From a virus (Duplodnaviria; Caudoviricetes), in IMG/VR virus record IMGVR_UViG_3300005758_000087, positions 17,683 to 81,682 of that record: DNA of 64,000 nucleotides. One strand, given 5' to 3'. The position numbers and the translations under genes are program-made. The first letter of the stretch is position 1. Each line of letters opens with the position of its first letter. Shown in pieces: positions 1,109-54,188 of this stretch. Below the pieces are notes generated by a model, which had not been told where the DNA came from, made no database searches, and saw nothing but the letters and a program-made list of their open reading frames with translations.

Positions 1109-1918
1109 TTATACCGCCGTCAACGCTATCTTACCCCAAATATTTGTAGTTCCATTATATGTACCCACGCATACATATAGGTAACTTCCATCTGTACATA
1201 TAAGTCCTGGTGCATCGCCCTGAAGTCCTACTGCTGAAGGTTGTCTAATTGGTATTTGCGAGGCTTTTTGATTTCTATTTGTGGGCATTACATCCACTAT
1301 AGTGCCGCAATCCAAAGTAGTAAAAGTCAAATCAATGTACTTAACTCTATTGGGGAAACTTATTTGATTCGTGTATGTAACATTGGCTATTACATTAGCA
1401 TCACTTACGTTAGAATAATAATTTTCCAATAATCGCATACTAGCGCCCATTCCAGTAATTAAATTTCCACTAGAATTGATAGTTGTGTTGGGGAAGGTAA
1501 GGTATGCATTAGCATTTGCTACATACAATCGTAATTCTAAGTTACTCTGTGTTCCTGAGGGAGCCCAGCCACCAAAAGTTATTGAAGTATTTTGTGTTAT
1601 AGTGCCATATTGTACATCTGCTTTTGTAACATCAATCAAGACAGAACTTGATAAATTATCACCTAAATTATATGTTTTTGCTCTAAATCCTTGCACACTA
1701 GCATTACTAATTAAAGTATTAGCCATGTCATTGTTTAATACACTACCGTCTATTGCTGTTTTTACTAAAGCTTTATTTTGCAAATCAGAAATTTCCGCTG
1801 CTGCGGTATTTAAATTGTTTTTTATACTTGCAAAGTTATCTCTAAATCCCTGAGTGGTATTATTAACACCCGGTATAGGGTAGTTGGTATCGATTGAATT
1901 TGTGTTTATTGCGCTCAT
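1109..1918 (-). CDS. Virion structural (tail/baseplate-associated) protein
   Basis: 269 aa, N/T/S-rich, N-terminal NYPIPGVNNTTQGFRDNF plus coiled segment; late promoter CTAAATA upstream. Confidence 0.6.
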   Translation of the reverse strand: MSAINTNSIDTNYPIPGVNNTTQGFRDNFASIKNNLNTAAAEISDLQNKALVKTAIDGSVLNNDMANTLISNASVQGFRAKTYNLGDNLSSSVLIDVTKADVQYGTITQNTSITFGGWAPSGTQSNLELRLYVANANAYLTFPNTTINSSGNLITGMGASMRLLENYYSNVSDANVIANVTYTNQISFPNRVKYIDLTFTTLDCGTIVDVMPTNRNQKASQIPIRQPSAVGLQGDAPGLICTDGSYLYVCVGTYNGTTNIWGKIALTAV

Positions 1919-1940
1919 AATATAGTATCCGTACTGTTAT

Positions 1941-4115
1941 TTAGTAGTCTATGTTCTTAGGTAAAATTGTTTCTCTAGGAAATAATATAGGCAAGTCATA
2001 CCTATCGATAGGATCAGGAGTGGGTACTGCTGCTGGAAGTTGCTCCCAAGAAGGTTGTAATAAATTAGTATTATAATTATAAGTGGCGCTTTTATCCACA
2101 ATTAACCTATCGATTGAGAAATCTATTATGTTTAATTTATAATTCCAATTATTGTTTATATTATTTCTTATTACTTCGCTATAGCCAGGAAGAGTGTAAC
2201 AAATTACCCAAACCTGTATGAAACCCAATGTTTCCCCATTCGATTGCTGACTAGTCATCCATTTGGGCAATAGACTTTGATTGGTATTGTGCGGTAGTGT
2301 TTCTAGCACTTCGGCTCTCATATTACTTAGGCTAGCTGGGTATAATGTGCGTACTGAACCCGGAGTATAACTAGTATATACATTTTCAAAACTAGTAAAA
2401 TAATCTTCGTTAGCAACAAAATAAGGACCTTCATCCAATGTTATTTTTTTAGGCCAAACTATTTCTTTGGGAATGCTAACACCGTTTTTATTTACAAGGT
2501 CATCTATTATTTCAGAATATACCACTTCATACACAATATTATTGTTTTCATCTTTAGCAACTGCTGTTTTGATTTCCCCTAATACTAATTTTCTGTTGTA
2601 ATGATTTCTGCTAATTACATCAATATACTTTTCTATGTTCACTGGTTCTACACCGTATATATGAACATACTTAACATCTTTGGCTTTCCCATAATACGGA
2701 TCATTAGGTCTATACAAATATTCTTCGGGTATTAGTTCATTATTGTCTAATAAACTTTGAATTATTTTTTTACCGGCTATGTTTGGGCAAGCCTTCAAAT
2801 ATATATTGTCAACTGGGGTCTCGAATTGCTGTAAAATAGTTAAAGTAAAAGTCCTTTCACTATTAATCATAGGATATTGTGGATTAAAGGCTTCAACAGT
2901 AAATGAGTAAGTGCTAATATCGTTTAAATTTTTCAATGAGCTAGATGGTTGAAATGGGAATCTACCTACTAACTGCCCATTGTCTAGCAAACTAATATTA
3001 GGTGGCAATTGCCCAGCAACAAGTCTGTATTCTAGTGCATTTTCTGAATTAGCTTTTACGTATAAGTTAGAAGTAGATCCATTATTGACAATGCCCAAAT
3101 CGCTATTCGTTTCCCAAATAACATCTTTGTTAATGTTATTAGTTATAATTAGTCTATATGTTTCTATATCACTAACTATAGTAGGATCATTAGATTTACT
3201 AACCTGAACGCTAAAGATAAATTCAGTTATGCTATTTTCAGAAAGAACCGGAACACCGGCGATCCACCCAGTACTAGCATCGCCTATTAGACCCGGAGGC
3301 AATACTCCAAAATTATAATTTATTGGTTGCTGATCAAAATCATATCCTATGATTTTAAAAGAGAAATATTCACCTGCATTAATCACTGATAAAAAATTAT
3401 CTTCGGGTAAATAATACCTATAATATGGATCTAATTCTGATACTGGCTGAACCAATGGTGTATTATTTAATATCGCTGGTTTTCTAGTGTTGGGGGGATT
3501 AGACAATTGTTGATTTCTAATTATTATGCTATATGTTTTAGAATCTAATCCCAACTCACTAGTAAGTTGTACCGTAAATGTGTAAGTTTTAGTTTCAGGA
3601 GATCCGTTGATATTAGTTGGTGGTAAGGGAAAACCTGTAATTTTGCCTACACTACTCATTTGCAAACCGGGGGGCAGAGATCCCGAAGATATGGTTAAAG
3701 TATATGTATTATTTGGTGCTGGGTTATTTACATTAATTTGATAGTCTATATATGTACTGTCTTCTACAATGAGTAAATTGCCGGGAGGTGTAGAAATTTT
3801 TATACCATCGAATCCAAAAATATTTAAAGAAAATGTCCTATCTCTAAAATTTCCAAAGTCATCAGTTACACGTATAGTAAAAGAATATGTAGTTTCAACT
3901 AGTATATTTTTAGGTATACCCGACAAAAAGCCAGTTTCAGATAACACTATATTGCTGCCAGGAATGCCTTCAGGCAAGGATCCATTTAATAACTTATAAG
4001 TTAATAAATTAGCTCCGGGAACAGATGAATTAGCGATGAATTGCAAGTTAAGTGGAGTTCCTGAAGGAAATGTTCCTAAATTTTGTGCAGGTGTTACCCA
4101 AACTGGTTGAGACAT
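1941..4115 (-). CDS. Ig-like (He_PIG) repeat virion protein, probable baseplate wedge subunit
   Basis: 724 aa; repeated GSLPPGL..S..G.I.G.P......Y.FT motifs typical of putative Ig domains; tail operon context. Confidence 0.65.
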   Translation of the reverse strand: MSQPVWVTPAQNLGTFPSGTPLNLQFIANSSVPGANLLTYKLLNGSLPEGIPGSNIVLSETGFLSGIPKNILVETTYSFTIRVTDDFGNFRDRTFSLNIFGFDGIKISTPPGNLLIVEDSTYIDYQINVNNPAPNNTYTLTISSGSLPPGLQMSSVGKITGFPLPPTNINGSPETKTYTFTVQLTSELGLDSKTYSIIIRNQQLSNPPNTRKPAILNNTPLVQPVSELDPYYRYYLPEDNFLSVINAGEYFSFKIIGYDFDQQPINYNFGVLPPGLIGDASTGWIAGVPVLSENSITEFIFSVQVSKSNDPTIVSDIETYRLIITNNINKDVIWETNSDLGIVNNGSTSNLYVKANSENALEYRLVAGQLPPNISLLDNGQLVGRFPFQPSSSLKNLNDISTYSFTVEAFNPQYPMINSERTFTLTILQQFETPVDNIYLKACPNIAGKKIIQSLLDNNELIPEEYLYRPNDPYYGKAKDVKYVHIYGVEPVNIEKYIDVISRNHYNRKLVLGEIKTAVAKDENNNIVYEVVYSEIIDDLVNKNGVSIPKEIVWPKKITLDEGPYFVANEDYFTSFENVYTSYTPGSVRTLYPASLSNMRAEVLETLPHNTNQSLLPKWMTSQQSNGETLGFIQVWVICYTLPGYSEVIRNNINNNWNYKLNIIDFSIDRLIVDKSATYNYNTNLLQPSWEQLPAAVPTPDPIDRYDLPILFPRETILPKNIDY

Positions 4116-18942: not shown

Positions 18943-19560
18943 TTTATCAACTTCTCTGTATAAATCTTCCATAGAACCATCGTTGGTGATGTAATAATCA
19001 TAAATTAATCCAACACTACTGTATTCGCTTGCATGAATCCCTAATGATTCTAATTTATTTTTACAAGCCTCCCAATTTTCTGTTTTAGGAACCTTATTAC
19101 ACTCTACTGCATCGTTGTACCAAACTGGGTTCGGTCCTCTAGAAACTCTAATTACTATTCCGCCGGCACGCCGTATGCTTTCTATTTCATTTTTAAATCT
19201 ACAGTCAGTGATTACAATATTATCTTTAGTTTTTCTTAATTTGTTTTCTACACTGGCTATCCAAATTTCTGAATGAAATTTGTCTCGAAATAGATCAGTT
19301 CCCCAATTTTGCAACACCCACCTTGGACTAAGATCAGGAATAGATAGTCTGTTACTCCACCAAACATCTACCTGCTCTCTCCAAATTCTACTTTCTTTTG
19401 TAGATCCCTCAAGTAACTGTCTATCCCAACCAAATATGTTTGAAACGGCATCTTTTAATGATGCTGCAAAACTTATTCGCTGAAACCCATGTGCAGACGT
19501 TAGATAGTCTGCTATTGTATCTTTGCCGCTAGCAATAAATCCAGTAATTCCGATAATCAT
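18928..19560 (-). CDS. Deoxynucleoside monophosphate kinase (T4 gp1-like)
   Basis: MIIGITGFIASGKDT P-loop; SFAASLKD; VITDCRFKNE. Confidence 0.93.
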   Translation of the reverse strand: MIIGITGFIASGKDTIADYLTSAHGFQRISFAASLKDAVSNIFGWDRQLLEGSTKESRIWREQVDVWWSNRLSIPDLSPRWVLQNWGTDLFRDKFHSEIWIASVENKLRKTKDNIVITDCRFKNEIESIRRAGGIVIRVSRGPNPVWYNDAVECNKVPKTENWEACKNKLESLGIHASEYSSVGLIYDYYITNDGSMEDLYREVDKLINF

Positions 19561-19597
19561 AAAAAAGCCCTGTAATACTTAGCATATCACAGGGCTT
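19561..19597 (-). terminator. Rho-independent terminator after gp13
   Basis: AAGCCCTGT/ACAGGGCTT stem followed by T6 on the minus strand. Confidence 0.7.
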
Positions 19598-19615
19598 AGG
19601 AAAAATTATTTAAAA

Positions 19616-20377
19616 TTAACCTATTATGAACGTGTAGGGCTGGCTGTAATCTACGAAGTTTTTGAGATCGATTAATAATTGTTCTTGCATAGCCTTACCC
19701 TCAGCTTTCAGTGCGGTTCCATTCAACGTAGTCCCCCCGCTGGGTCCCGCAATACTAGCAAATTTTTCTCTGGCTTCACCTAGAGTCATTTTAAGCTGAC
19801 TTAGTGTCCAATCGCCTATCCAAACACTTGCTCCGGGGTCCTGCAATAATTGTTGCTCAGGTCTAATGATATCAGCCCAAATTAATATTTGTTCGCCAGA
19901 ACCTTTGGGATCTCTAACTAGTTTTATTTGTTTAGTCACCGGATTAAATGTATAGATTACATATCCACCGAACATTCTAGCTGCCAATTCAATGTATTGT
20001 GCATAAAAGTCGTATGTGGCTAGCCCTCCGGCATAATTGTAATTTAGAAGATAGGTATTTAAAATAGCACTACTAAATGGGTCAAAACTGCTTGCTGCAG
20101 GACCAGTTTCCAATCCAACTGTTCGTCTAAATATTGCCCTGACGTTTATGAACTCTTCTGGTAAGGTATATACATTTACATTTTTTTCTATTTTCATTAA
20201 TGTATATGATTCCTGAGTGGAATTTTGTGCTCTCTGTCGATAGATTTTTATAGCATAGCGGTACGCTGCTTCATAATGCTCAGGATCTAACTCTACGTCT
20301 ACCATTCCGTCGCCTAATCGTAAACGTAAATTTTTAAATAATTCGTCTTTAAGTTCTTGTAAGTTATTGCCCGACAT
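19616..20377 (-). CDS. gp13: Neck protein
   Basis: LRLRLGDGMVDVELDPEHY; LGEAREKF..I.GP.GGTTLNG.ALK.E. Confidence 0.9.
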   Translation of the reverse strand: MSGNNLQELKDELFKNLRLRLGDGMVDVELDPEHYEAAYRYAIKIYRQRAQNSTQESYTLMKIEKNVNVYTLPEEFINVRAIFRRTVGLETGPAASSFDPFSSAILNTYLLNYNYAGGLATYDFYAQYIELAARMFGGYVIYTFNPVTKQIKLVRDPKGSGEQILIWADIIRPEQQLLQDPGASVWIGDWTLSQLKMTLGEAREKFASIAGPSGGTTLNGTALKAEGKAMQEQLLIDLKNFVDYSQPYTFIIG

Positions 20378-20396
20378 AGTATATTCCTTTATATAC

Positions 20397-20404
20397 TATT
20401 TATC
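20397..20404 (-). promoter_or_regulatory. Late promoter GATAAATA
   Basis: Upstream of gp13. Confidence 0.65.
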
Positions 20405-20412
20405 GGGCGTAT

Positions 20413-21045
20413 TTAAACAAACCTAACTAGATTATTTCTAGAAATTGCAGAATTGGACATTTTGATCAACTTTTTCATAGAAGCCGATGGTATTCTTAAT
20501 TTAACTTGATTTTCATTGTACTCTAGAACCATAAATTTGTTCGCGGCTCTGAAAGTTTGAAAAGGCGAGAATGTAACCTCACCGGTAATTTTTCTATGAA
20601 TCTTCACATAGTCAACTAGTTGCTTGTTAATATCCTCATACGCTTCTTCCATAATATACTGAATGTCAGGATAATTCAAATAGCATAAATCATACCTGAC
20701 TATTTTATTGATTTTTGCGTCATAAGCAACTAATAACAGTGCCTGAAGTTTTTGAAAAAACTTACTAGATTTATATGATTTTAACAAAAATTCAGATAAA
20801 GTTACTGTACCTATTGTCCAATTAGAATCAGATTCTATATTTTTTGATTTAATTTCTATTCCGTATTCTGATATATCTACTACGCCTTCAATATCAATTC
20901 TCAACTGTCGGCCGATATAATTGTGTATATATGTTCCCAAATGACTGGGATCTACCATGTCCTCAGGTAAGTTCAAGTCGTATAAAAATGCAAAGGTTTT
21001 TTCACTTAATCGAGTATTCATTGAATTACTTTTGGTAGAGGTCAT
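20413..21045 (-). CDS. Putative MutH/Sau3AI-fold endonuclease
   Basis: D.SEYGIEIKSK..WTIGT..KSSKFFQKLQALLLV resembles the MutH/Sau3AI core; start moved to ATG 21045. Confidence 0.5.
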   Translation of the reverse strand: MTSTKSNSMNTRLSEKTFAFLYDLNLPEDMVDPSHLGTYIHNYIGRQLRIDIEGVVDISEYGIEIKSKNIESDSNWTIGTVTLSEFLLKSYKSSKFFQKLQALLLVAYDAKINKIVRYDLCYLNYPDIQYIMEEAYEDINKQLVDYVKIHRKITGEVTFSPFQTFRAANKFMVLEYNENQVKLRIPSASMKKLIKMSNSAISRNNLVRFV

Positions 21046-21046
21046 G

Positions 21047-21478
21047 TTAAATATCCCCATCTTTACGGTTTTCACTATAGTGAGGATCAAAGTTTCCACC
21101 TGGGTATCGTGCTTCAAGCTTCTTGACATTCTCCGCAATTACTTCATTGGGATCTAAATCAAGTGCCCTACATGCGTTAATCCAATACCAAATAACATCT
21201 CCCAATTCTCTTTTCATGTGGTATACATTTTCTTCATTAAGTGGTTTGCCCTGAAAGAACATTTTTTTGGGAATTTCACAAAACTCACCTGTCTCTGCTG
21301 CAAGTCCTAATGCTGCTGTTAAAAGTAAAGGCACATTAATATCAGGTCCATGCGAGCCATCTTCACTACTATAATTTGCATCTAGTTCATCACAGCGGTT
21401 CATGAAAGTAGTTAAATCATTGCTTGATTTACTTGTTACCGCTTTTACAAAATCTTTATACTTGTTTAAGTCAATCAT
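21047..21478 (-). CDS. mazG: MazG-like NTP pyrophosphohydrolase
   Basis: GLAAETGEFCEIPKK..RELGDVIWY..NVKKLEARYP. Confidence 0.93.
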   Translation of the reverse strand: MIDLNKYKDFVKAVTSKSSNDLTTFMNRCDELDANYSSEDGSHGPDINVPLLLTAALGLAAETGEFCEIPKKMFFQGKPLNEENVYHMKRELGDVIWYWINACRALDLDPNEVIAENVKKLEARYPGGNFDPHYSENRKDGDI

Positions 21479-21657
21479 TCGTCATCATCTCCAAATAAAT
21501 ATGCTGCCATTTTTCGTTGTGTCGTGTCTGGATCCTTTTTTGCGCACTCAAAACAAATTTCTTCGTCATTAGGACCATATGGTCTACATTCATCAATTAC
21601 ACCACATATTTGACATGCTTGCGGTGGTTCTTCTGCTATAAATCCTCGCCCGCTCAT
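21475..21657 (-). CDS. Small CxxC protein
   Basis: 60 aa; CQICG..CFEC; coupled overlap. Confidence 0.7.
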   Translation of the reverse strand: MSGRGFIAEEPPQACQICGVIDECRPYGPNDEEICFECAKKDPDTTQRKMAAYLFGDDDE

Positions 21658-21660
21658 TTT

Positions 21661-21771
21661 CTACCCTTTAATCTGATTGGTAATTTTATTACATTTCTCA
21701 TACAAAACACCCATGCAAAAACCGAATCCTGTCCATCCTATAATCATTAGCGCGTACCAAATGTGTTTCAT
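21661..21771 (-). CDS. 36-aa membrane micropeptide
   Basis: Below the track cutoff; MKHIWYALMIIGWTGFGFCMGVLYEKCNKITNQIKG; starts at a GGAG junction. Confidence 0.65.
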   Translation of the reverse strand: MKHIWYALMIIGWTGFGFCMGVLYEKCNKITNQIKG

Positions 21772-21774
21772 TTT

Positions 21775-21972
21775 TCAACTCCGAAAAAGTGGAACACCGT
21801 CGGTTAACATCCTAACATAGATCAAGTTGGGAAAAGTGTCAAGTGTGCCACGATGCCGCTCAATTTTGATCGACCATTGTTCTGGGACTTCTGGGTCAGT
21901 TTCTAGACCATAGAAAAACTGATCCCGAGCACCCGATTCAATTTGCTGTTTGAAATACACTTCAATGTTCAT
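21775..21972 (-). CDS. Hypothetical protein
   Basis: 65 aa, tiled in the early operon. Confidence 0.7.
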   Translation of the reverse strand: MNIEVYFKQQIESGARDQFFYGLETDPEVPEQWSIKIERHRGTLDTFPNLIYVRMLTDGVPLFRS

Positions 21973-22142
21973 TTTAACAACTCCATAATGATAATAAAGA
22001 CACTGGGCATGGCAAAAACTAGTGCCAATGCCAAAAAAATGCTGTCACGATACCACGGAACATATGGAATATTCAATGTTTTACACAGTTCTTTATCGGA
22101 CATTTTGCTGACATCAATGTAGTGTACTTTTCGTTCGTTCAT
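21969..22142 (-). CDS. 57-aa protein with C-terminal transmembrane helix
   Basis: Below the cutoff; MNERKVHYIDVSK...IFLALALVFAMPSVFIIIMELLK; ATGA overlaps at both ends. Confidence 0.7.
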   Translation of the reverse strand: MNERKVHYIDVSKMSDKELCKTLNIPYVPWYRDSIFLALALVFAMPSVFIIIMELLK

Positions 22143-22282
22143 TCTTTAACTCCATTAACAATTTGCCATTTTCTAAAAGCACCCCAAGCAGTTGGAAAGT
22201 ATGTTGTTTGTGTTCCAATCAGATTACAACTCCATAAAGGTTCACCAAAATCTAATACTGTTTTATGCAAATGTGGTTTCAT
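22139..22282 (-). CDS. 47-aa hypothetical protein
   Basis: Below the cutoff; MKPHLHKTVLDFGEPLWSC...GVKE; ATGA overlaps at both ends. Confidence 0.65.
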   Translation of the reverse strand: MKPHLHKTVLDFGEPLWSCNLIGTQTTYFPTAWGAFRKWQIVNGVKE

Positions 22283-22506
22283 TCTTCAACTCCAAAATGT
22301 TCTGCTACATTACAAACACGATTGATAACTTCTAGCATCTTGCCATCACCTGGTTCGGGCAAGTCTTTACTGAATACTTCCATACATTCAGCCACAATCA
22401 ACTCAGCGAACTTTTCCAATTCGTCTGCATAGAATTGATACACACCTAGATTTTGTTTATGTGTTGATCCAGCCTGTTCAGCAAGTTCTCGAATTCGTTC
22501 GTTCAT
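22279..22506 (-). CDS. MNERI-family paralog A
   Basis: MNERIRELAEQAG..LEKFAELIVAEC..HFGVEE. Confidence 0.85.
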   Translation of the reverse strand: MNERIRELAEQAGSTHKQNLGVYQFYADELEKFAELIVAECMEVFSKDLPEPGDGKMLEVINRVCNVAEHFGVEE

Positions 22507-22670
22507 CAGTTAATCCCATCAAGATAAAATTTGTATTCCAGACGCATTGCTGCTTCAATTTCCGCATCAGCATCGATGTTATGAAGTTCTTGCAGTTGCG
22601 ACTTTATATCATCACCAAATGATACTGTGTATCGTTTACGCCATTCTTCGTATGTTAGTTTTTCGTTCAT
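22506..22670 (-). CDS. 54-aa protein with gp23-like HxxDADAE segment
   Basis: Below the cutoff; MNEKLTYEEWRKRYTVSFGDDIKSQLQELHNIDADAEIEAAMRLEYKFYLDGIN. Confidence 0.7.
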   Translation of the reverse strand: MNEKLTYEEWRKRYTVSFGDDIKSQLQELHNIDADAEIEAAMRLEYKFYLDGIN

Positions 22671-22897
22671 TCTTCAACTCCAAAATGTTCTTTAATAGTG
22701 TCGGCACAGTCCAGTACCCCACGACGATAATCGTAGCGATATCGGGTATCGGTTTCGTCCATGGATTTACATAATGCCATACATTCTCTCACAATCAACT
22801 CGGCGAATTTTTGCATTTCTTCATCAATGCCCATCGATTCAATAACAAAATCGTATAGTCCGGCCTGTTCCATCAGTTCTTTAATTCGTTCGTTCAT
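22667..22897 (-). CDS. MNERI-family paralog B
   Basis: MNERIKELMEQAG..KFAELIVREC..IKEHFGVEE; start moved to 22897. Confidence 0.85.
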   Translation of the reverse strand: MNERIKELMEQAGLYDFVIESMGIDEEMQKFAELIVRECMALCKSMDETDTRYRYDYRRGVLDCADTIKEHFGVEE

Positions 22898-22944
22898 CGC
22901 AATATCCATACAATAAGTACCACCCCAATCATAAACCAGAACAT
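22894..22944 (-). CDS. 16-aa hydrophobic micropeptide
   Basis: MFWFMIGVVLIVWILR; TAATG overlap upstream and ATGA overlap downstream, fills the gap exactly. Confidence 0.55.
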   Translation of the reverse strand: MFWFMIGVVLIVWILR

Positions 22945-23360
22945 TATACGCTCACTTCAAATCTAAAGTTGTCAGGATCATCTACTAGCTGAGATTCTTG
23001 TACCTCAGTCCATTTACCATCTATTCTAATTTCGATCTTAATTTTTGTCAACTCTTCGGCAACCTTGCGATCAATTTGGTCCAGCATACCAGTGCGCCTT
23101 AACGTTTCGAGCCGGTGCCATTCTTTGAATTCTTTCGTTTCGCACATTTTGACGAAGGCGTCTCTTCGGTTTTCAAGTTGACTACGGCTAGATTCACTGT
23201 AACCTTTGGCGCCTGATTCTCTATGGCGACAATGAACTGCACTTGAAGTTTTATTCTTTTTTTGTCCGCCACTTCCAGTTCCTCGTGTATAGCTCCAGTC
23301 ACAATCATCCTTGGTTACGCTAAACAACAGTTCACGTTTCTTTTCCATAATATTATCCAT
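22944..23360 (-). CDS. Stand-alone class I release factor GGQ domain (ArfB/PrfH-like peptidyl-tRNA hydrolase)
   Basis: YTRGTGSGGQKKNKTSSAVHCRH..SRSQLENRRDA; alternative start 23348. Confidence 0.88.
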   Translation of the reverse strand: MDNIMEKKRELLFSVTKDDCDWSYTRGTGSGGQKKNKTSSAVHCRHRESGAKGYSESSRSQLENRRDAFVKMCETKEFKEWHRLETLRRTGMLDQIDRKVAEELTKIKIEIRIDGKWTEVQESQLVDDPDNFRFEVSV

Positions 23361-23363
23361 TAG

Positions 23364-23753
23364 TTAAACTAAATCCACTTCTTTAGTCAATTCTTTTACA
23401 TACAGGTATGGCAATAGTAATAGTACAGCAGGATGTGGGTCTAGTTCAGACCACATCAATAGTTGGTCATAGGACATGTTTAGGTATTTCTCGCAGTTAT
23501 CGTAGGCAATAAAAGCTAGTATCGCGTCCCTTGCCGCATAACTTGCCGTATTCCATACCGCATCCATTGCCGCATTCAATGCCGCATCTTTTGCTGGATC
23601 CCCTGCCGCATAACTTGCCGTATTCCATACCGCATCCCATTTCGCACTTTTTGCTGAATCCCATGCCGTAATCCATGTGTCGGCGTTATCTTTCAATGTT
23701 TGGAGTACCCAATCAATATGCTTCGCATTTGGCAGTTTTGACCACTCAGACAT
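23364..23753 (-). CDS. MSEW-family Trp/Ala-repeat paralog 1
   Basis: MSEWSKLPNAKHIDWVLQ..(AVWN/TASY/AA)n..AYDNCEKYLNMSY..HPA.LLLPYL; start moved to 23753. Confidence 0.85.
   Translation of the reverse strand: MSEWSKLPNAKHIDWVLQTLKDNADTWITAWDSAKSAKWDAVWNTASYAAGDPAKDAALNAAMDAVWNTASYAARDAILAFIAYDNCEKYLNMSYDQLLMWSELDPHPAVLLLLPYLYVKELTKEVDLV
23532..23637. repeat. 34-nt exact direct repeat inside MSEW paralog 1
   Basis: 23532-23565 = 23604-23637 (72-nt period). Confidence 0.9.
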
Positions 23754-24213
23754 TTTCAATCTCTTTATCTTCGATCTTTTCTTTTACGAACAAGTACGGG
23801 AGCAACAGCACACAAGCAGGGTGTGGGTCTAGTTCAGACCACATCAATAGCTGGTCATAGGACATTTTTAGGTACTTCTCGCAGTTATCATACGCAATTA
23901 AGGCACGAAGCACACACCTTGCCGCCTCCATTTCTGTAACCCTTGCCGGATCCCATACTGCCGGATCACTTGACGCATCCGATATCTCATCCCATATCGC
24001 GAGCAATGCCGGATTCCATGCCTGCAACACATCCTCGTATGCCGTAACTCTTGCCGCCTGCAATATATCATCGTATGCCGTAACTCTTGCCGCCTTCAAC
24101 TCCCCATTCCTTGATGTGGTTAGTGACCCGGCCCATTCTTTGGGGTTATCTTTCAATGTTTGGAGTACCCAATCGATGTGCTTTGCGTTTTGTAGGTGTG
24201 CCCACTCAGACAT
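23746..24213 (-). CDS. MSEW-family Trp/Ala-repeat paralog 2
   Basis: Same constant ends; central AARVTAY repeats. Confidence 0.85.
   Translation of the reverse strand: MSEWAHLQNAKHIDWVLQTLKDNPKEWAGSLTTSRNGELKAARVTAYDDILQAARVTAYEDVLQAWNPALLAIWDEISDASSDPAVWDPARVTEMEAARCVLRALIAYDNCEKYLKMSYDQLLMWSELDPHPACVLLLPYLFVKEKIEDKEIENV
24035..24095. repeat. 25-nt exact direct repeat inside MSEW paralog 2
   Basis: 24035-24059 = 24071-24095 (36-nt period). Confidence 0.9.
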
Positions 24214-24637
24214 TCGCAGTCTCCTTGCTTCTGGTTTCTTCTTTTACGAACAAGTACGGAAGTAACAAAACACAAGCAGGGTGTGGATCTAACTTATTCC
24301 ACATCAGTAATTCCTCATATGACATGTTTAGGTACTTCTCACAATCATCATACGCAATTAAGGCGCGAAGCGAACCCCTTGCCGCCTTCCATGTCGCCTC
24401 CCATACCGTACTCCTTACCGCACCTCTTGTTCCGATCCATGCCGCATCCCAGGCCTCTTCTCGTCCCGCATCCCATATCGCGAGCAATACCGCAGCCCTT
24501 GCCGAATGCCATGCCGCAATACCTACTACGGGTTTCGCTGCGGTCCATGCATTAACCCACGTGTCGAGATTAGCGTTTACTGACTGAAGTACCCAGTCAA
24601 TATGCTTCGCATTTGGCAGATGTGACCATTCGCTCAT
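24206..24637 (-). CDS. MSEW-family Trp/Ala-repeat paralog 3
   Basis: Same constant ends; central AW/IWDA repeats. Confidence 0.85.
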   Translation of the reverse strand: MSEWSHLPNAKHIDWVLQSVNANLDTWVNAWTAAKPVVGIAAWHSARAAVLLAIWDAGREEAWDAAWIGTRGAVRSTVWEATWKAARGSLRALIAYDDCEKYLNMSYEELLMWNKLDPHPACVLLLPYLFVKEETRSKETANV

Positions 24638-24879
24638 TTTTCAACTCCGAAAGTTGGTTGCGGATATCCAAAACGATCCTCAATTAGTGATACATAGTAT
24701 CCTGCTTTTCTTGTTTCACTTTCCATTATTGAGTTGGCGCATTCAGCAACAATCAACTCGGCGAACTTTTCCAATCCGTCGTAGGTATAAACCATACAAC
24801 CTTTTTCGCCGCCAACATGTTGATTGAGATCAACAAAACCTTTAGCCTGTTCAGCAAGTTCTCGAATTCGTTCGTTCAT
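24634..24879 (-). CDS. MNERI-family paralog C
   Basis: MNERIRELAEQA..LEKFAELIVAEC..FGVEK. Confidence 0.85.
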   Translation of the reverse strand: MNERIRELAEQAKGFVDLNQHVGGEKGCMVYTYDGLEKFAELIVAECANSIMESETRKAGYYVSLIEDRFGYPQPTFGVEK

Positions 24880-25058
24880 GCATTCCTCAATCCTATTCTA
24901 CTATATCCAAGTTTTGATTTAGTTTCTCGACGGCTTTCTCTTTGATTACCAAATCGTTTTAAACAAGCAAGGTAACCTGCTAGGTAGCTATCCCAGTCTA
25001 ATTTGGAATCTTCTGCAACATAATCTCGCTTGACTCGTTCGACGAATTCTGGTGTCAT
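24876..25058 (-). CDS. Hypothetical protein
   Basis: 60 aa; starts at a GGAGTTGAAGAATGA junction. Confidence 0.7.
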   Translation of the reverse strand: MTPEFVERVKRDYVAEDSKLDWDSYLAGYLACLKRFGNQRESRRETKSKLGYSRIGLRNA

Positions 25059-25061
25059 TCT

Positions 25062-25382
25062 TCAACTCCACCTCAATAACCAAATAGTTTTTTCATGAGG
25101 ATCATTGAACCTTAGTCTCAGATCCCATTTCATTTTGTCGGTATTGTAGTACTGTTCTACAGTATAGTTACCGGGATACTTCTTCTGCATCCACTTATAT
25201 GCATTGGCTTCGATGTCTGCTTCGGTAACAGTGGTGGTGCCGCCTGCTCCCACTACACCATTGATACCGTTGCCCAATCTACTCAAATAACTCTGCCAAG
25301 TATCCTTAACAGGTTGTGGAATGTTTGAAGCATAAAAGGCTCCTGCATCTGATGTAGAAGTTCCCTTGTATCTCACGGTCAT
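25062..25382 (-). CDS. Chimeric small protein: gp23-like N-terminal peptide plus F..D/E..F.L.W domain
   Basis: TVRYKGTSTSDAGAFYA N-terminus; C-terminus LRFNDPHEKTIWLLRWS. Confidence 0.75.
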   Translation of the reverse strand: MTVRYKGTSTSDAGAFYASNIPQPVKDTWQSYLSRLGNGINGVVGAGGTTTVTEADIEANAYKWMQKKYPGNYTVEQYYNTDKMKWDLRLRFNDPHEKTIWLLRWS

Positions 25383-25624
25383 TCTTCAACTCCGAAATGT
25401 TGTTTAATCTTCTGACTGGCATTTTGTATAGTCCAAAAATAGGGGTCGCTATCTTCAGGATCGGCCATGTCATCTACAACTGCTACACATTCTCTCACAA
25501 TCAATTCGGCGAACTTTTCTAATTCAGATTCAGCAACTTCATATTTGGTCGGGGTTCCAGAAAACTGAAATGAAGATAGATTTACTCCAGCCTGTTCAGC
25601 AAGTTCTCGGATTCGTTCGTTCAT
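25379..25624 (-). CDS. MNERI-family paralog D
   Basis: MNERIRELAEQAG..LEKFAELIVREC..IKQHFGVEE. Confidence 0.85.
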   Translation of the reverse strand: MNERIRELAEQAGVNLSSFQFSGTPTKYEVAESELEKFAELIVRECVAVVDDMADPEDSDPYFWTIQNASQKIKQHFGVEE

Positions 25625-26815
25625 TTAGAAGCACCTCAAGATGATCATATTTTCATTAAAGCGACCGTTTGGTTGAGTCACTACTGCTTTGATGCTATCA
25701 AAGAATTTACGTGCTGCAGGTTTACTACCCATCACCTCTTTAATTTGCTCACCTGGCTTACGAAGTGTTTTAACTTCACTTTTAGCGGTATCGAAGCCAA
25801 GAATTGTATTACCCTTTACAGTGAAAGTCTGACTGTACTGGTCAGCAATGTAGTGATGTAGTTTGCGTTTTGCAGTGTCATATACCCACGCTTCACTAGC
25901 ACCATGCAGTTTAGTAGGATGCACACTTACCAGATCAAGCTTGAGTGCAGGATCCTTATACTCTTTGAGGTACTTGAGTTTAGCTACAATTTTCTCTACC
26001 GGTACAGGCTTCCGCTTACGTGGAGTCTTTGCTGCCTTCTTCACACTGATATAACTATTGAGGTCGCTCATTACCGTTTCAATAGCTTTAATCATGTTTT
26101 TGATTTGCACCTTGCCGAATTGACTGTAACCTTCAACTAGTTGCGGGTCTTTACCTTCTTGCACTTCTTCAAACTCTGTTAGAGTTTTCTTCCAAGTATC
26201 TAGGATAATAGGAATATGTTGCGGAAGAATATTATACTTTGCAAGAATGTCAATAGGCTTGCCCGGCAAGCTTCCTTTTGCACCTGCAATAACAAACTCG
26301 TCAAACAAGCCAGCAATCTCGCCTGCTGCTTCACGTGTTTTTTCTTTCATAATTTCTTGAACGTTAGGGCGATTTACCGGTTCTTTTTCTTCTACTTCAA
26401 TTTCTTGAGGCGTCAGTTGCGACTTAAACACAGTTTCAGGCTTGTGTACACAAGTCATGAGCCGGGTCAATTCATTTTGCAGCGACATTTCCTCATGTTC
26501 GGTAAGTTGCAAGCCGCGCAACGTCATACGTGCTAGCCAACCATATGTACTAAGAATTTCGCTTTCGGGTACTTTAGCTAGTACTTTTGCATCGGCTTTT
26601 CGGTCATTGTATTCCATATATTGGATCATCAATTCTTTGGCTTCTTTTCTACCATAAAAACGATTGTACCAACCAAATGCTCGGGCTAGTGCGCTTGTAC
26701 GGAATTCTGGATCTGGCTGGACTGCAAAGAATGGCTCGTCACCAGTGTATTTTGTGTCGGGGTCTTTTGGATTTAGGGCTTTAATGTATTGATCTTCTGA
26801 TTTCTTTTTAGCCAT
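25625..26815 (-). CDS. Conserved myophage early protein of unknown function
   Basis: 396 aa; first gene after a perfect sigma70 promoter; C-terminal WVYDT.KRKL..FTVKG.T..GFD..KTLRKP block. Confidence 0.8.
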   Translation of the reverse strand: MAKKKSEDQYIKALNPKDPDTKYTGDEPFFAVQPDPEFRTSALARAFGWYNRFYGRKEAKELMIQYMEYNDRKADAKVLAKVPESEILSTYGWLARMTLRGLQLTEHEEMSLQNELTRLMTCVHKPETVFKSQLTPQEIEVEEKEPVNRPNVQEIMKEKTREAAGEIAGLFDEFVIAGAKGSLPGKPIDILAKYNILPQHIPIILDTWKKTLTEFEEVQEGKDPQLVEGYSQFGKVQIKNMIKAIETVMSDLNSYISVKKAAKTPRKRKPVPVEKIVAKLKYLKEYKDPALKLDLVSVHPTKLHGASEAWVYDTAKRKLHHYIADQYSQTFTVKGNTILGFDTAKSEVKTLRKPGEQIKEVMGSKPAARKFFDSIKAVVTQPNGRFNENMIILRCF

Positions 26816-26845
26816 AATTTGCTCCTATACTTAATGATGTTGATG

Positions 26846-26874
26846 ATTATACATGAATCTCATTTTATTGTCAA
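26846..26874 (-). promoter_or_regulatory. Sigma70-type early promoter
   Basis: TTGACA-17 nt-TATAAT, perfect consensus. Confidence 0.9.
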
Positions 26875-26881
26875 GTGTTGT

Positions 26882-26889
26882 CATAAATA
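26882..26889 (+). promoter_or_regulatory. Late promoter CATAAATA
   Basis: Upstream of gp14, divergent from the early promoter. Confidence 0.6.
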
Positions 26890-26908
26890 TAATTAACAGG
26901 ATTATAAC

Positions 26909-28828
26909 ATGCCACGAATATCATTATATCGCCCCGAAAAAGCAAACGATTACAAATTTCTTGATAAAACTATAAAAGAAATGTTGGTTGTGGGCGGAAC
27001 GGACTTATATGTACATAAATATTTAGGAGTAGCCAACACCGGACCAAGTAGAGATTTCACACAACCGCAATATGATCAATTAGACCCTACCAATATTCAA
27101 GACTTGCTATTTTTAGAAAACCGAGATAGAAAATACGATAGCACTATTTACAGAATTCGCGGGCATTATAATGTACAAAATTTAGATTTTGATTTAAGTC
27201 AATTTGGGCTATTTTTAAATAACGATATTGTTTTCATTACCGTGCATTATAACGAAATGATTGAATTATTGGGTAGAAAACTAATGGTAGGTGACGTTTT
27301 AGAATTACCTCATCTAACAGATTATCATCCATTAAATGACCAAATACCAATTGGTCTGCGCAGATACTATCAAATAACTGATGCCAACTTTGCCAGTGAA
27401 GGATTCAGCCAAACTTGGTATCCGCATCTGTGGAGAATCAAATGTGAGCCATTGATTGACAGCCAAGAATTTTCTAACATTCTCAGTCAGCCACTAGAAA
27501 AAGATAATTATTTAGGAGACTGGGATTCTACTAAAGAGTACATAGCAGGATATACGGTAACATATGGCGATAACACATACACTCCCAAATTACCCGGCCC
27601 GGTGCCGGCAGGAATCGCACCCACTGACAATACATATTGGGAGCTTAGCACTGCTGATAATTTAAGAGATATAATAGCCAGATATAATAAAAACATAGAA
27701 GTTAATAACGCAGTTATAGCAGAGGCTGCTAGACTAGTTCCTAAAAATGGCTATGACAGAAGCCAATTATATGTAGTACCCACGCAAAATGGTGAGCCAG
27801 CACCCCCAGTAAATATAGTAGTTTCACCCGGAAGTCCTACTCCAACCCGAGCTACGGTATTCATGATGCGAAGTAGTGCCTATAGCAATCCTAGTCCGGT
27901 ATTACGAATCGGTGCAGAAGCTAGAAAAAAACTCTTTGAACTTAGCACAGATGACCAAAATGCCTTGCGCGAATTTATTGCATTAAGTTTAAAAACCGCA
28001 AAATTAAATCCCGAAAGGACTGATACTGGAAGCGGGCAGGTCGACGGTACTCTAGTGCTGACTGCCAAAGCAAATGGACCAATAACCGGTCCATATGGGA
28101 CTGCGGATAATACATATAGCACCGCTGATCAGTTTCCTCCGTTTACTGTAACTAGTTCTATAAATATTCCCATAAGAAGTCAAACTATTTCGATTTTAGG
28201 GTTAGAACCTAACCAAGACATAGCACCACAAAATTTAATTAGTGCCGCGGTTACTAGCTTAGCCGGAATAACAAATAACATATTTGCAGAAAACACAAGA
28301 GTAGTAAGTGTTAATAAGTTAAACAACACCTTTACTATTGATAAACCCACAATTTATGCTATGCCTGCTGGTACTGCTATTAATGTCGAACCAAATTTTG
28401 ATCTTACTAAAAATCCAATAAGTTTGCAAATGAATTATAGGGCGGACTGTGATCCTAGATTTGCATATATAGCGCGTAGTACACCAAACGGATTTGGTTA
28501 TAGTGATGGATACATGATCGGCGACGGTACTGCTCCAAACGGGTTACCAGTTGGCTCAGGTATTGTGTTTCCGGCTAATCCCAATTTAGGAGATTACTTC
28601 TTAAGAACTGATTACTTACCTAATTTATTGTATAGATATGACGGAAATTTATGGGTAAGAATAGGTGTTAATACACGTTCTAGTGTAGGATTCGAGAGTA
28701 CTGATCCTAGCAATCAATCACAAATGGCTAGCTTTATCAATAACGAACAAACACTTACATTGACTGACGGAACTGTTATACCACAGCAACAACCCCTAAG
28801 CTCAATTTTAACTATACAACCGGATTAA
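26909..28828 (+). CDS. gp14: Neck/head-closure protein with extra C-terminal domains
   Basis: IQDLLFLENRDRKYD..DLSQFGLFL..GDVLELPHL; 639 aa with a WDSTKEYIAGYTVTY CBM-like insert. Confidence 0.8.
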   Translation: MPRISLYRPEKANDYKFLDKTIKEMLVVGGTDLYVHKYLGVANTGPSRDFTQPQYDQLDPTNIQDLLFLENRDRKYDSTIYRIRGHYNVQNLDFDLSQFGLFLNNDIVFITVHYNEMIELLGRKLMVGDVLELPHLTDYHPLNDQIPIGLRRYYQITDANFASEGFSQTWYPHLWRIKCEPLIDSQEFSNILSQPLEKDNYLGDWDSTKEYIAGYTVTYGDNTYTPKLPGPVPAGIAPTDNTYWELSTADNLRDIIARYNKNIEVNNAVIAEAARLVPKNGYDRSQLYVVPTQNGEPAPPVNIVVSPGSPTPTRATVFMMRSSAYSNPSPVLRIGAEARKKLFELSTDDQNALREFIALSLKTAKLNPERTDTGSGQVDGTLVLTAKANGPITGPYGTADNTYSTADQFPPFTVTSSINIPIRSQTISILGLEPNQDIAPQNLISAAVTSLAGITNNIFAENTRVVSVNKLNNTFTIDKPTIYAMPAGTAINVEPNFDLTKNPISLQMNYRADCDPRFAYIARSTPNGFGYSDGYMIGDGTAPNGLPVGSGIVFPANPNLGDYFLRTDYLPNLLYRYDGNLWVRIGVNTRSSVGFESTDPSNQSQMASFINNEQTLTLTDGTVIPQQQPLSSILTIQPD

Positions 28829-52640: not shown

Positions 52641-52883
52641 TTACCAATCATCTTCATCAGAATCTTCATAGTCTTCATAGTCTTCATCTTGGTCATGTTC
52701 CTCAATGTAGGCTTTTAAAGCATTGCGTATATCCTTATCATTAAACGAATTTTTAATTTCATCCGTTTCATAATTATTGTCAATTAATAAATTTACCAAA
52801 ACATCCGCTGCTTCTGAACGACTATTAAAATCAATATGGTCTCTCAATGCGTCCCATACCTCTGCTACTAGGTCTAAGCTCAT
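52641..52883 (-). CDS. Small acidic hypothetical protein
   Basis: 80 aa with D/E-rich tail. Confidence 0.7.
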   Translation of the reverse strand: MSLDLVAEVWDALRDHIDFNSRSEAADVLVNLLIDNNYETDEIKNSFNDKDIRNALKAYIEEHDQDEDYEDYEDSDEDDW

Positions 52884-53947
52884 TCTACATTCTCCTCTTC
52901 AGTAGTAACAGTACTTAGCTGATTCGCCCCCTTTTTCTGATATTCTGTCATAACTTTATCTAGGCAACCTTCTGAATTAGTTTCCCATCCCTTACGGAAA
53001 AGCTTGATAACTTCGCCCTCTTCGGTAGTATATGAAAGTCTATTACCTTCTTTTACTAACAAGTTTGCTTTCTCAAAAAGATCAAGCAATCCACTATAAG
53101 GGTTCATTCCAGTAGAATAAGGGATTTTAACCTGTACACTTTCAAAAGGTTTAGCATATCGTGTTTTCATAACCTTACAAGCAGAGCGAATACCTAAAAC
53201 TTCGCTTACCTTGTTACCGTCTTCGTCTTCTTTTAACTTAAGTTTTTTCATAGCAACAACAATGCTTGATGCGTAGATAAAACCTTGACCACCGCTAATT
53301 TTATCATCCGGATCAAACATATCCTGACTAGCATATGTGTGATTAGTTGCCACAAGTCCCACGTTATGGCTACCAAACATATTAACACAATTTCGAACCA
53401 ATGCAGTTAGTGCTTTGGGTTTACGACCCATATCACCCTTCATATCACCTGCTTCGAACTGATTAACGTCAGTTGGCGTTAACAGCATACCAAGTGAGTC
53501 GATAATAAACAACACCTTAGGTCGCTCACCGTCCGGCATAGCCCTATATCCTTTCATAAACTCACTAATAGTTTTAGCCACATCATCAATCATGGCCATA
53601 TTTAATTTTAGTAATTTATCTTCACTAGTATCAACTCCTAAATTATGAAGCCAATCTTCGTCAAGGGCGTTTTCACTATCAACGAGTACAACGAATATAC
53701 CTTGTTGCTGAGCATGCCTGACGAGATTTCCTGAACAAATATAGCTTTTTCCTGAACCGCTTTCACCAGCGAATACAGTAACTTTGCCAAGAGGCACGCC
53801 TTTGTGGAAATCACCGCTAATAAGATAATTAAGTGCGTAATTTCCTGTGCTAATCCAATCAGTAGGGTCATTAAATCCAATGCTCAATCCTTCAATGCTT
53901 TTTGTAATATCTTTTCTAAACTTTGCTACATCAAACGGCTTTACCAA
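52880..53947 (-). CDS. uvsX: RecA-like recombinase UvsX
   Basis: GESGSGKS; DSENA; IIDSLG; SGG.GF.YASS; start moved to TTG 53947 (SD GGAGA). Confidence 0.95.
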   Translation of the reverse strand: MVKPFDVAKFRKDITKSIEGLSIGFNDPTDWISTGNYALNYLISGDFHKGVPLGKVTVFAGESGSGKSYICSGNLVRHAQQQGIFVVLVDSENALDEDWLHNLGVDTSEDKLLKLNMAMIDDVAKTISEFMKGYRAMPDGERPKVLFIIDSLGMLLTPTDVNQFEAGDMKGDMGRKPKALTALVRNCVNMFGSHNVGLVATNHTYASQDMFDPDDKISGGQGFIYASSIVVAMKKLKLKEDEDGNKVSEVLGIRSACKVMKTRYAKPFESVQVKIPYSTGMNPYSGLLDLFEKANLLVKEGNRLSYTTEEGEVIKLFRKGWETNSEGCLDKVMTEYQKKGANQLSTVTTEEENVE

Positions 53948-54188
53948 TTTTATCTCCAATCTTAGATACGTTAGTAGTGTGAACTCCAAACGGTTGTTTG
54001 TCAAGTAACTCGGGGCATTTTTCAGCAATAATATCAATTTCCCAATCAAGTGGAAAATGTCTAAGTGCTGTTCTAGCCTTGTCTCTCACTGTGCTGGGAA
54101 CTCTGGGAGTTTTGCCTGGATCACATAATTCTTCTAACAATTTTTTACCTTGCTTGAGGGCACGGTATCTTTCATCACTTGTTGTCAT
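53931..54188 (-). CDS. Small conserved hypothetical protein (BPSL0761-like)
   Basis: MT..DERYRAL..TPRVP..VR..AR..LRHFP. Confidence 0.75.
   Translation of the reverse strand: MTTSDERYRALKQGKKLLEELCDPGKTPRVPSTVRDKARTALRHFPLDWEIDIIAEKCPELLDKQPFGVHTTNVSKIGDKIGKAV

Follow-up and report, generated by a model that had tools for sequence, protein, structure and literature searches.

We analysed a stretch of 64,000 nucleotides (nt) from a virus of the Caudoviricetes, positions 17,683 to 81,682 of the IMG/VR record IMGVR_UViG_3300005758_000087 (hereafter the window), which carries on its minus strand an early operon of small genes joined at several places by one 15-nt junction, GGAGTTGAAGAATGA, in which a Shine-Dalgarno sequence, a stop codon and a start codon are packed together. 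An earlier note on this DNA had read the junction as a portable ribosome-binding site and as a recombination handle for the shuffling of mini-genes. The 81,682-nt source record is a fragment of a large phage (about 24% complete according to CheckV), and this phage is a large, distant relative of the T4-like phages. Its gene g1 has matches of 24-34% identity among proteins of phages of Stenotrophomonas, Caulobacter, Sinorhizobium and Pseudomonas, and its relatives in IMG/VR reach up to 352 kb. Neither megablast of the region nor tblastn of a paralog of the MNERI family, which is described below, gave a match in 50,697 phage records, and the clade is without a cultured relative in that collection.

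The early operon and its variable slot

The operon runs from 26815 to 20413 and comprises 19 open reading frames (ORFs) of 36-396 amino acids (aa). Its features, together with a recombinase gene located elsewhere in the window, are listed here; the variable slot is the interval between g1 and the MazG-like gene, and L214 is a related contig to which we return below.

26846-26874, minus strand: sigma-70-type promoter TTGACA-17-TATAAT, 12/12 match, start of the operon.
25625-26815, minus strand: g1, 396 aa, phrog_11903, conserved; 5' anchor of the variable slot.
25379-25624, minus strand: MNERI paralog A, 81 aa; its tail, 25379-25393, is an exact junction (GVEE-stop).
25062-25382, minus strand: g3, 106 aa, of a family ending in WLL[KR]WS; an exact junction copy on both sides; 81 homologs.
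25055-25069, minus strand: orphan junction, exact, read TGG AGT TGA by g3; left end of a 2908-nt block missing in L214.
24876-25058, minus strand: g4, 60 aa; a second conserved tail type, GYSRIGLRNA-stop, overlapping ATGA.
24634-24879, minus strand: MNERI paralog B, 81 aa; its tail, 24634-24648, is GGAGTTGAAAAATGA (FGVEK-stop).
23364-24637, minus strand: three tandem MSEW paralogs, slot cargo, joined by an 8-nt overlap of their own (ATGTCTGA).
22944-23360, minus strand: stand-alone RF-1 (GGQ) domain protein, slot cargo; Pfam RF-1 2e-12; phrog_3122.
22667-22909, minus strand: MNERI paralog C, 80 aa (76 aa from the ATG at 22897); its tail, 22667-22681, is an exact junction.
22506-22670, minus strand: g11, 54 aa, with its start at the paralog C junction.
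22279-22506, minus strand: MNERI paralog D, 75 aa; its tail, 22279-22293, is an exact junction.
22139-22282, minus strand: g13, 47 aa, NGVKE-stop; its tail, 22139-22153 (GGAGTTAAAGAATGA), is an orphan junction; homology to L214 resumes at 22146.
21969-22142, minus strand: g14, 57 aa; the gene begins with 13 nt that match the MNERI 5' block and ends MELLK-stop, a tail unrelated to the junction.
21775-21972, minus strand: g15, 65 aa, PLFRS-stop through a MNERI-type tail; orthologs end PLFKEAE-stop or PLFRNQ-stop.
21768-21782, minus strand: orphan junction GGAGTTGAAAAATGA, read CGG AGT TGA; with the preceding TTTC, 19 nt equal the paralog B tail.
21661-21771, minus strand: g16, 36 aa, hydrophobic; missing from a contig about 96% identical across g13-g15.
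21475-21657, minus strand: g17, 60 aa, zinc-ribbon-like, phrog_18256.
21047-21478, minus strand: MazG-like pyrophosphatase; 3' anchor of the variable slot.
20413-21045, minus strand: g19, 210 aa, last gene of the early operon, in a second variable slot, the smaller one, which precedes the adaptor gene.
52880-54049, minus strand: RecA/UvsX-type recombinase (PF00154, 58 bits, E 2.6e-17).

The promoter, which the earlier note had called perfect, agrees with the consensus at all 12 positions; 79 of 80 relatives keep it 5' of their g1 homolog, 51 of them in perfect form. The 20 ORFs of that note, said to be tiled with gaps of at most 3 nt, come out slightly differently: we count 19 ORFs of at least 36 aa, and the tiling holds at 17 of the 18 intra-operon junctions, which are overlaps of 1-8 nt (11 of 18) or gaps of up to 3 nt (range -8 to +3 nt), the exception being a 34-nt gap at 22910-22943, or one of 11 nt if a mini-ORF at 22894-22932 is included. 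This mini-ORF has 12 codons, and its TGA overlaps the ATG of paralog C at 22897. A promoter-like site, TTGACA-17-TAGAAT (11/12), lies at 23051-23023, 5' of this only sizeable gap of the operon. The junctions themselves contain neither promoter nor terminator, and there is no space for a promoter in them because the joined genes overlap or sit at most 3 nt apart; the description of the genes as promoterless therefore stands for the junctions and is uncertain for the operon as a whole, given the 11/12 site. No convincing terminator was found within the operon, and an Rfam scan of 19500-27500 returned no RNA family. An ATAAATA motif at 20397-20403, about 20 nt 5' of the adaptor gene start (20377) and present at the same place in several relatives (L008, L013, L024), resembles a late promoter of the T4 type and would mark where the early operon ends.

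Among 80 IMG/VR relatives whose g1 is 61-86% identical, the backbone consists of a divergent 639-aa gene, the promoter, g1, the slot, MazG, a small slot and the adaptor gene. The g1-to-MazG interval measures 9-1510 nt in 74 relatives (median 192; the two genes are adjacent in 31 of the 74) against 4146 nt in the window. Where the slot is occupied, MNERI genes are its commonest occupant, and the genes that follow the MNERI tail differ between phages. The operon sits in a hypervariable slot between g1 and MazG. Moreover, g19 is found at about 30% identity in just 3 of the 80 relatives, and the MazG-to-adaptor interval (42-1180 nt) is therefore a second variable slot; g19 itself has a weak MutH-like Pfam match (E 0.0013) that lies below the cut-off.

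The junction as the tail of the MNERI genes

The 15-mer occurs exactly, on the minus strand, at 22279, 22667, 25055 and 25379 and with one mismatch each at 21768, 22139 and 24634, just as had been reported, and the ATGAACGAA starts described at 22142 and 22670 are present as well. A further variant claimed at 21969 (GGAGTTGTTAAAATGA) drops out, as it needs an indel and is the C-terminus of g14 itself, the L089 homolog of which ends IMEMI-stop (ATGGAGATGATATGA). Allowing up to three mismatches, there are 10 matches vs 2.3 expected, a number that none of 100 shuffles equalled, and the 7 copies with at most one mismatch in the whole 81,682-nt record are all inside this operon. Four of these 7 are the last five codons (G-V-E-E/K-stop) of the four MNERI paralogs, in the frame GGA GTT GAA GAA TGA at the ends of 25379-25624, 22667-22909 and 22279-22506 and as an AAA variant at the end of 24634-24879. 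The shifted frame, TGG or CGG AGT TGA, that had been pointed out for the copies at 25055 and 21768 is confirmed by the reading of the ORFs that end there (25062-25382 and 21775-21972). As mRNA, the junction is composed of GGAG, which is the Shine-Dalgarno sequence, a 7-nt A-rich spacer and an AUG overlapping the UGA, and 5 of the 7 15-mer junctions are ATGA overlaps.

The MNERI proteins are uncharacterised, about 75-85 aa long, and follow the pattern MNERI…KFAELIVREC…HFGVEE, with the consensus MNERIxELAEQAG - variable - LEKFAELIVREC - variable - IKxHFGVEE. The protein database holds more than 3301 homologs at E <=0.001, nearly all of them unnamed or 'hypothetical'. The window paralogs matched no Pfam family (E <=0.01) and no PHROG, and the Pfam and PHROGs searches likewise gave no family for g3, g4, g11 and g13-g16; one MNERI homolog (P0057) reaches 24.5 bits against DUF5814 (PF19131), the gathering cut-off of which is 25. 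An AlphaFold model of paralog A has three helices at a pLDDT of 85, with no significant fold match in the PDB. At the DNA level the four paralogs share three blocks only: a 5' block (ATGAACGAACGAAT…GAACAGGC), a central block (GAAAAGTTCGCCGAGTTGATTGT…GAATG) and the tail (CATTTY GGAGTTGAAGAATGA). Their similarity ends exactly at the ATG and the TGA, and they are not recent duplicates because the variable segments between the blocks are unrelated.

Beyond the window, an exact-match scan of IMG/VR gave at least 179 copies of the 15-mer in at least 120 stretches, in arrays of up to 8 per contig; among the matches listed, the GVEE-stop frame is used in 153 of 179 copies and HFGVEE-stop (the 15-mer after CATTTY) in 123 of 179. 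MNERI genes have a junction 5' of them only where another junction-bearing gene is upstream; they are not preceded by a junction of their own, and the element therefore belongs to the upstream gene and is not a mobile downstream cassette. In the closest relative (L008:5129-5143), a MNERI homolog has TCA for TGA in the junction, and its ORF therefore runs on to 99 aa.

The predominance of one reading frame, in the window as among the listed IMG/VR copies, and the unrelated nature of the supposed variant at 21969 are what plain paralogy would predict, that is, duplicated MNERI genes with a conserved C-terminal peptide, whose bases have no role of their own and whose copies in other frames arose by chance. 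The unrelated variable segments already speak against it, and the codons of the tail contradict it. From the codon usage of this genome, the probability of the 15-mer given GVEE-stop is 0.02. The 80 anchor-fetched loci and this genome hold 12 family members, and all 13 of 13 tails from the g1-fetched loci (4 being the window's own) read CATTTY GGA GTT GAA, with only TTY (Phe) varying. In a less biased sample, made up of 80 family copies that are without the exact 15-mer and come from loci retrieved on other grounds, GGA encodes the tail Gly in 70 of 79 (89%) vs 212 of 830 (26%) elsewhere in the same genes, the Val codon is GTT in 51 of 68 (75%) vs a background of 40%, and the stop is TGA in 61 of 80 (76%) vs 15 of 61 (25%) of the long ORFs of this genome; the Phe codon is free (TTC/TTT, 50/30). 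This codon bias argues that the tail is constrained as nucleic acid, namely as GGAG, 7 nt and an AUG overlapping the UGA.

Moreover, the tail outlasts changes that would alter or abolish its peptide. In L089 and L092 it survives the loss of 1 nt (GGAGT-GAAGAATGA, read LLGVKND-stop), and among the IMG/VR copies it is found behind frameshifted coding sequence (…KRTFRS-stop), at the end of truncated gene remnants and, in L133 and L175, directly behind a TAA stop. Three orphan tails of 15-19 nt within one 3.6-kb stretch are also beyond chance, because the 81.7-kb record has none elsewhere. We therefore regard plain paralogy as quite improbable: duplication of the MNERI genes, which the earlier note had named as the explanation that would undo its own, accounts for most of the listed copies but not for the codon bias and the orphan copies, and the claim that the element is kept as nucleic acid rather than only as peptide stands.

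The constraint appears to serve the next gene. In the record, 62 of the 111 predicted genes have no recognisable Shine-Dalgarno sequence 3-11 nt from the start, and strong GGAG sites are concentrated in the early operon; this genome has 7 GGAG-7-ATG sites, of which 5 are junction copies. In the IMG/VR sample, the exact 15-mer lies 5' of 166 ORFs of at least 30 aa, 51 of them MNERI genes and 115 others falling into at least 101 clusters. These counts support the 15-mer as a probable common ribosome-binding site and start for unrelated downstream genes, in agreement with the portable ribosome-binding site that had been proposed.

T4 RegA is a translational repressor, and the T4 RegB nuclease cuts GGAG in early mRNAs. 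The same leader on more than 100 unrelated genes could be a regulatory operator, at which one factor, a RegA-like repressor or a RegB-like nuclease, would recognise the initiation region and control many early genes; GGAG sites spaced by 7 nt cluster in this early operon, and conservation extends beyond GGAG (GTT, 75% vs 40%). However, the V-E-E peptide constraint and the AUGA overlap already account for the spacer, and GAA is the majority Glu codon anyway (77-81%), so that an operator seems unlikely to us. Searches of the fragment for RegA (PF01818) and RegB (PF10715) gave no match, with the control searches silent too.

Breakpoints, orphan tails and chimeric genes

Gain and loss of genes between relatives with breakpoints in the junction, which the earlier note had anticipated, is seen in two comparisons and in break rates, and relatives do not share an identical gene order. 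The first comparison is with L214, a Logan contig of 24 kb to which the g3 homolog P0122 led us. Two blocks of it align with the window, one with positions 25407-25055 at 89% (a MNERI tail, the junction, g3 and the second junction), ending on the last base of the 15-mer, and one with positions 22146-21762 at 87%, beginning within the g13 junction and spanning g14 and g15. Between these blocks it has 7 unmatched bases instead of 2908 nt with ten genes (g4, paralog B, the three MSEW genes, the RF-1-domain gene, paralog C, g11, paralog D and g13). Outside the two matches, L214 has no relation to this genome, and the matched blocks therefore sit in different contexts; g14 of L214 has ATA at the window's ATG and starts from the junction instead. 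The second is an indel of g16: a 939-nt contig from a run labelled aquatic (run X1), about 96% identical over g13-g15, is without g16 and joins g15 to g17 through GGAGTT-AAGCG-ATGA, the left break falling after GGAGTT.

Hundreds of contigs from other phages align with nothing but the MNERI genes, with divergence setting in at 25379, 22506, 24879 and 25624, all of which are coding-sequence ends, and at junction copies homology stops 2-8 nt past the common ATG or begins 11-32 nt before it. When synteny with any related locus was scored across the 15-mer-fetched loci, junctions were broken in 38 cases and continued in 6, vs 21 and 15 for small-gene boundaries within 2 kb (odds ratio 4.5, Fisher p = 0.006); large-gene boundaries were broken in 11 cases and continued in 46. 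Short near-identical contigs were found in runs labelled aquatic and estuary; the assembled contigs of each run cover small shares of the stretch, and parts without contig cover are uninformative. Apparent joints (e.g., 22506 to 25379) were rejected as deletion variants: their sides are shorter than 30 nt, and they are MNERI-MNERI arrays of other phages.

Three genes outside the family, g3, g13 and g15, carry the orphan tails. Five orthologs of g15 end PLFKEAE-stop or similar (TTT AAGGAA…ATGA), and the L214 ortholog ends PLFRNQ-stop; the tail of g15 in the window differs from every ortholog beyond CCA-YTK-TTT and, after CCA CTT TTT, is the paralog B tail over 19 nt, giving PLFRS-stop. The g3 family ends natively in WLL[KR]WS, which distant members write TTGAGGTGGTCATGA, whereas g3 in the window and in L214 has TGG followed by AGTTGAAGAATGA, a hybrid of the native LRW tail and the MNERI tail joined at GG. 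The tail of g13, NGVKE-stop, is one base off the 15-mer. Outside the four paralogs, a MNERI DNA profile found tail-sized patches only; decayed MNERI bodies in g3, g13 and g15, which would have made these tails deletion scars, were rejected on this ground, and any scar is therefore limited to the last 16-25 nt. The orphan tails are best read as putative microhomology joins that would keep a working start for the next gene. The 15-mer of L184, considered as a g3-type tail, was discarded, since it is read there in yet another frame, the third, within a gene that is unrelated and belongs to a phage richer in GC.

Crossovers are also found within the MNERI genes. Among 202 family members, 39 of the 43 pairs with a first variable segment (var1) at least 70% identical have an unrelated second segment (var2), 24 of the 27 pairs with similar var2 have unrelated var1, and 3 pairs share both; across the window paralogs (22279-25624) and loci L093-L212, the two variable segments assort almost independently. 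The homolog P0002 has its var1 in common with paralog B and its var2 with paralog A, and var1 of paralog B is 96% identical to that of a copy in L125 whose var2 is unrelated. Between L100 and L135, blocks of gene size are 85-98% identical and are arranged differently, and the MNERI genes there include chimeras whose halves meet at the central block. A 36-nt 5' block is nearly identical in the window paralogs A, B and D, and more alike among these three than to its copies in other phages, which suggests gene conversion. We infer a role in such events for the RecA/UvsX-type recombinase (52880-54049), a plausible agent of homology-driven exchange.

It might be argued that a dedicated cassette system is at work, with a specific site like integron attC or the promoter-early stem-loop (PeSL) of T4-type phages, single-gene circles and a specialised enzyme, because g3 lies between two exact 15-mers, single- and multi-gene indels end in junction copies, and one promoter stands ahead of promoterless genes. 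However, the exchange is equally frequent at the internal MNERI block, the orphan joints lie at differing microhomologies with no single fixed cut, and the site, always within upstream coding sequence, has 15 nt, is not palindromic and is unstructured as RNA; folds of the seven junctions gave z-scores of -1.7 to +1.0 without a common structure, and folding revealed no att-like structure at the junction. The earlier note had seen no integrase, and our search for a tyrosine integrase (PF00589) was likewise empty in the 81.7-kb record, about 24% of the phage, with all controls positive. We find such a system scarcely credible here. Its free-standing cassette element is replaced by the 3' end of the MNERI genes, to which 153 of the 179 listed copies belong, and the recombination handle is retained in part: breakpoints do fall in the junctions, but as a by-product of dispersed family homology.

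The reading we favour, with a probability of about 0.7, is that the 15-mer is a dual-coded 3' block of the MNERI genes and that exchange occurs via dispersed homology of the family, with no dedicated cassette machinery. A long transcript would be made from the one conserved sigma-70-type promoter, and ribosomes ending a MNERI gene would restart on whichever gene follows. As MNERI copies are numerous within and between phages, their 5', central and 3' blocks would provide patches for homologous or microhomology-mediated recombination, probably carried out by the phage's own UvsX-type machinery. Recombinants whose downstream gene retains a working initiation region would survive best, which is why breakpoints would pile up at the tail, and non-MNERI genes such as g3, g13 and g15 would in this way have come to end in a MNERI tail, with the frame as it falls.

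Several points weigh against this reading. Translational coupling is something that we infer from the anatomy of the junctions, and a function of the GVEE peptide, which is unstructured, may explain part of the tight conservation of the tail. Among the three orphan tails, a probable source can be named for those of g3 and g15. The difference between the window and L214 needs more than one event, in view of the 7 unmatched bases and the change of the g14 ATG to ATA, and the 2908 nt may be gain or loss. The break-rate comparison is confounded by motif-fetched loci, by non-independent pairs and by cross-matches of MNERI paralogs scored as breaks. Lastly, breakpoints at gene boundaries are expected from selection alone in any phage, and their excess at the tail is no proof that crossovers start there.

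Other arrayed genes show tails of a similar kind. Unrelated small arrayed genes of more distant phages (L215:800-4100 and L216-L219, about 1800-3300) end ..[WF]F.L[RK]W[SALG]-stop, a second dual-coded tail, written TTGAGGTGGTCATGA, with the Shine-Dalgarno sequence GAGGTGG and a stop overlapping the ATG; g3 (25062-25091) belongs to this type. A third conserved tail, listed above for g4 as a second type, is ..GYSRIGLRNA/V-stop overlapping ATGA, found in the window at 24876-24905 and at L089:3170-3197 and L092:262-327; in L092 it is fused to a MNERI-like N-terminal half, a further tail-swap chimera. With regard to g3, pattern scans in IMG/VR and JGI metagenome contigs gave no match, and its 81 homologs came from the protein database; several of them have alternative N-termini, and 3 of the 81 have a precomputed Pfam match to PF07068 (major capsid protein Gp23). 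As for the slot cargo, the MSEW paralogs have common ends and repeat-rich cores, and the contig of a relative (run X3) across their array is about 410 nt shorter, so that either copy number or core length differs. The RF-1-domain protein has an 88% identical copy in L008, directly 5' of MazG.

Comparison with known systems and meaning

PeSLs, the promoter-early stem-loop cassettes of T4-type hyperplastic regions, are intergenic and hold a sigma-70 promoter and a terminator stem-loop ahead of the Shine-Dalgarno sequence; their exchange is attributed to homologous recombination between copies, and mini-circles have been shown (Arbiol et al., 2010, PMC2839356; Comeau et al., 2014, PMC4122927). 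The junction described here resembles them in being a short repeated expression signal at gene boundaries of variable regions that would feed whichever ORFan follows, and in that the motif bounds indels and replacements among relatives (L214, the g16 indel and the break rates). It differs in having no promoter, the operon having one perfect promoter at its start and one 11/12 site, and in having no terminator or stem-loop. Furthermore, the motif is 15-21 nt of upstream coding sequence that would act at the level of translation and forms the C-terminus of one family, and whereas mini-circles are known for PeSLs, none was found here, where assembled contigs of other samples were compared. The analogy to T4-type cassettes drawn by the earlier note is therefore sound as to motif-bounded indels and fails as to the defining promoter and stem-loop.

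Boundary or 'linker' sequences have been proposed to explain mosaicism in lambdoid phages and mycobacteriophages, but at most mosaic boundaries no such sequence can be recognised (Pope et al., 2011, PMC3029335). In the mycobacteriophage Island3, the adjacent genes gp67 and gp68 have in common about 50 bp that encode their C-termini (Pope et al., 2011, PMC3029335). As in that model, the same short sequence stands at the mosaic joints of both partners (the junction copies and L214), and as in Island3, unrelated neighbours share 3'-terminal coding bases, an indel is bounded by two copies, and general recombination is the mechanism proposed. Unlike in Island3, one sequence of 15-21 nt is found in at least 120 viral contigs and before at least 101 gene clusters, with signs of codon-level selection as a ribosome-binding site. 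Integron cassette arrays offer another parallel, as promoterless single-gene units are gained and lost unit-wise behind one promoter, whereas the record (about 24% complete) has no IntI integrase and no structured attC, and the junction lies in coding sequence and has no single point of crossover.

Translational coupling through an overlapping stop and start (AUGA), with the Shine-Dalgarno sequence inside the upstream gene, is common ground for bacterial and phage operons. The junction, in which 7 nt separate GGAG from an AUG overlapping the UGA of the gene before it, conforms to it, and the mechanism of expression is most probably ordinary stop-start coupling. In usual coupling, however, each gene pair normally has a sequence of its own, whereas here an identical site is reused across unrelated pairs and distant phages. 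What is new is the placing of a coupling site inside the tail of a protein family, its reuse across a very large uncultured clade with more than 100 downstream gene clusters, and codon-level evidence suggesting that translation of the next gene dictates the tail.

A more far-reaching view, which we consider doubtful, is that the MNERI constant blocks, and the junction above all, are maintained partly for exchange. They would then form a recombinase-independent, homology-guided cassette network of a very large, uncultured, aquatic jumbo-type clade, in which coupling replaces the promoter that each PeSL cassette has and in which single genes and MNERI halves are swapped in varying combinations in co-infection, possibly via junction-bounded circles. 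Likewise as speculation, the near-free assortment of the MNERI variable segments would fit a role in an arms race.

The 15-mer offers an easy way of searching metagenomic phage contigs for early-gene arrays, and the junction is a clean case in which translation of the next gene would set codon choice. It is in hyperplastic regions that large phages carry most of their unknown genes, and the turnover of these regions has been detailed only for the PeSLs of a few cultured T4-type phages. In the phage studied here and its relatives, the junction may play a part analogous to that of the PeSL with a different signal, a ribosome-binding, stop and start site.

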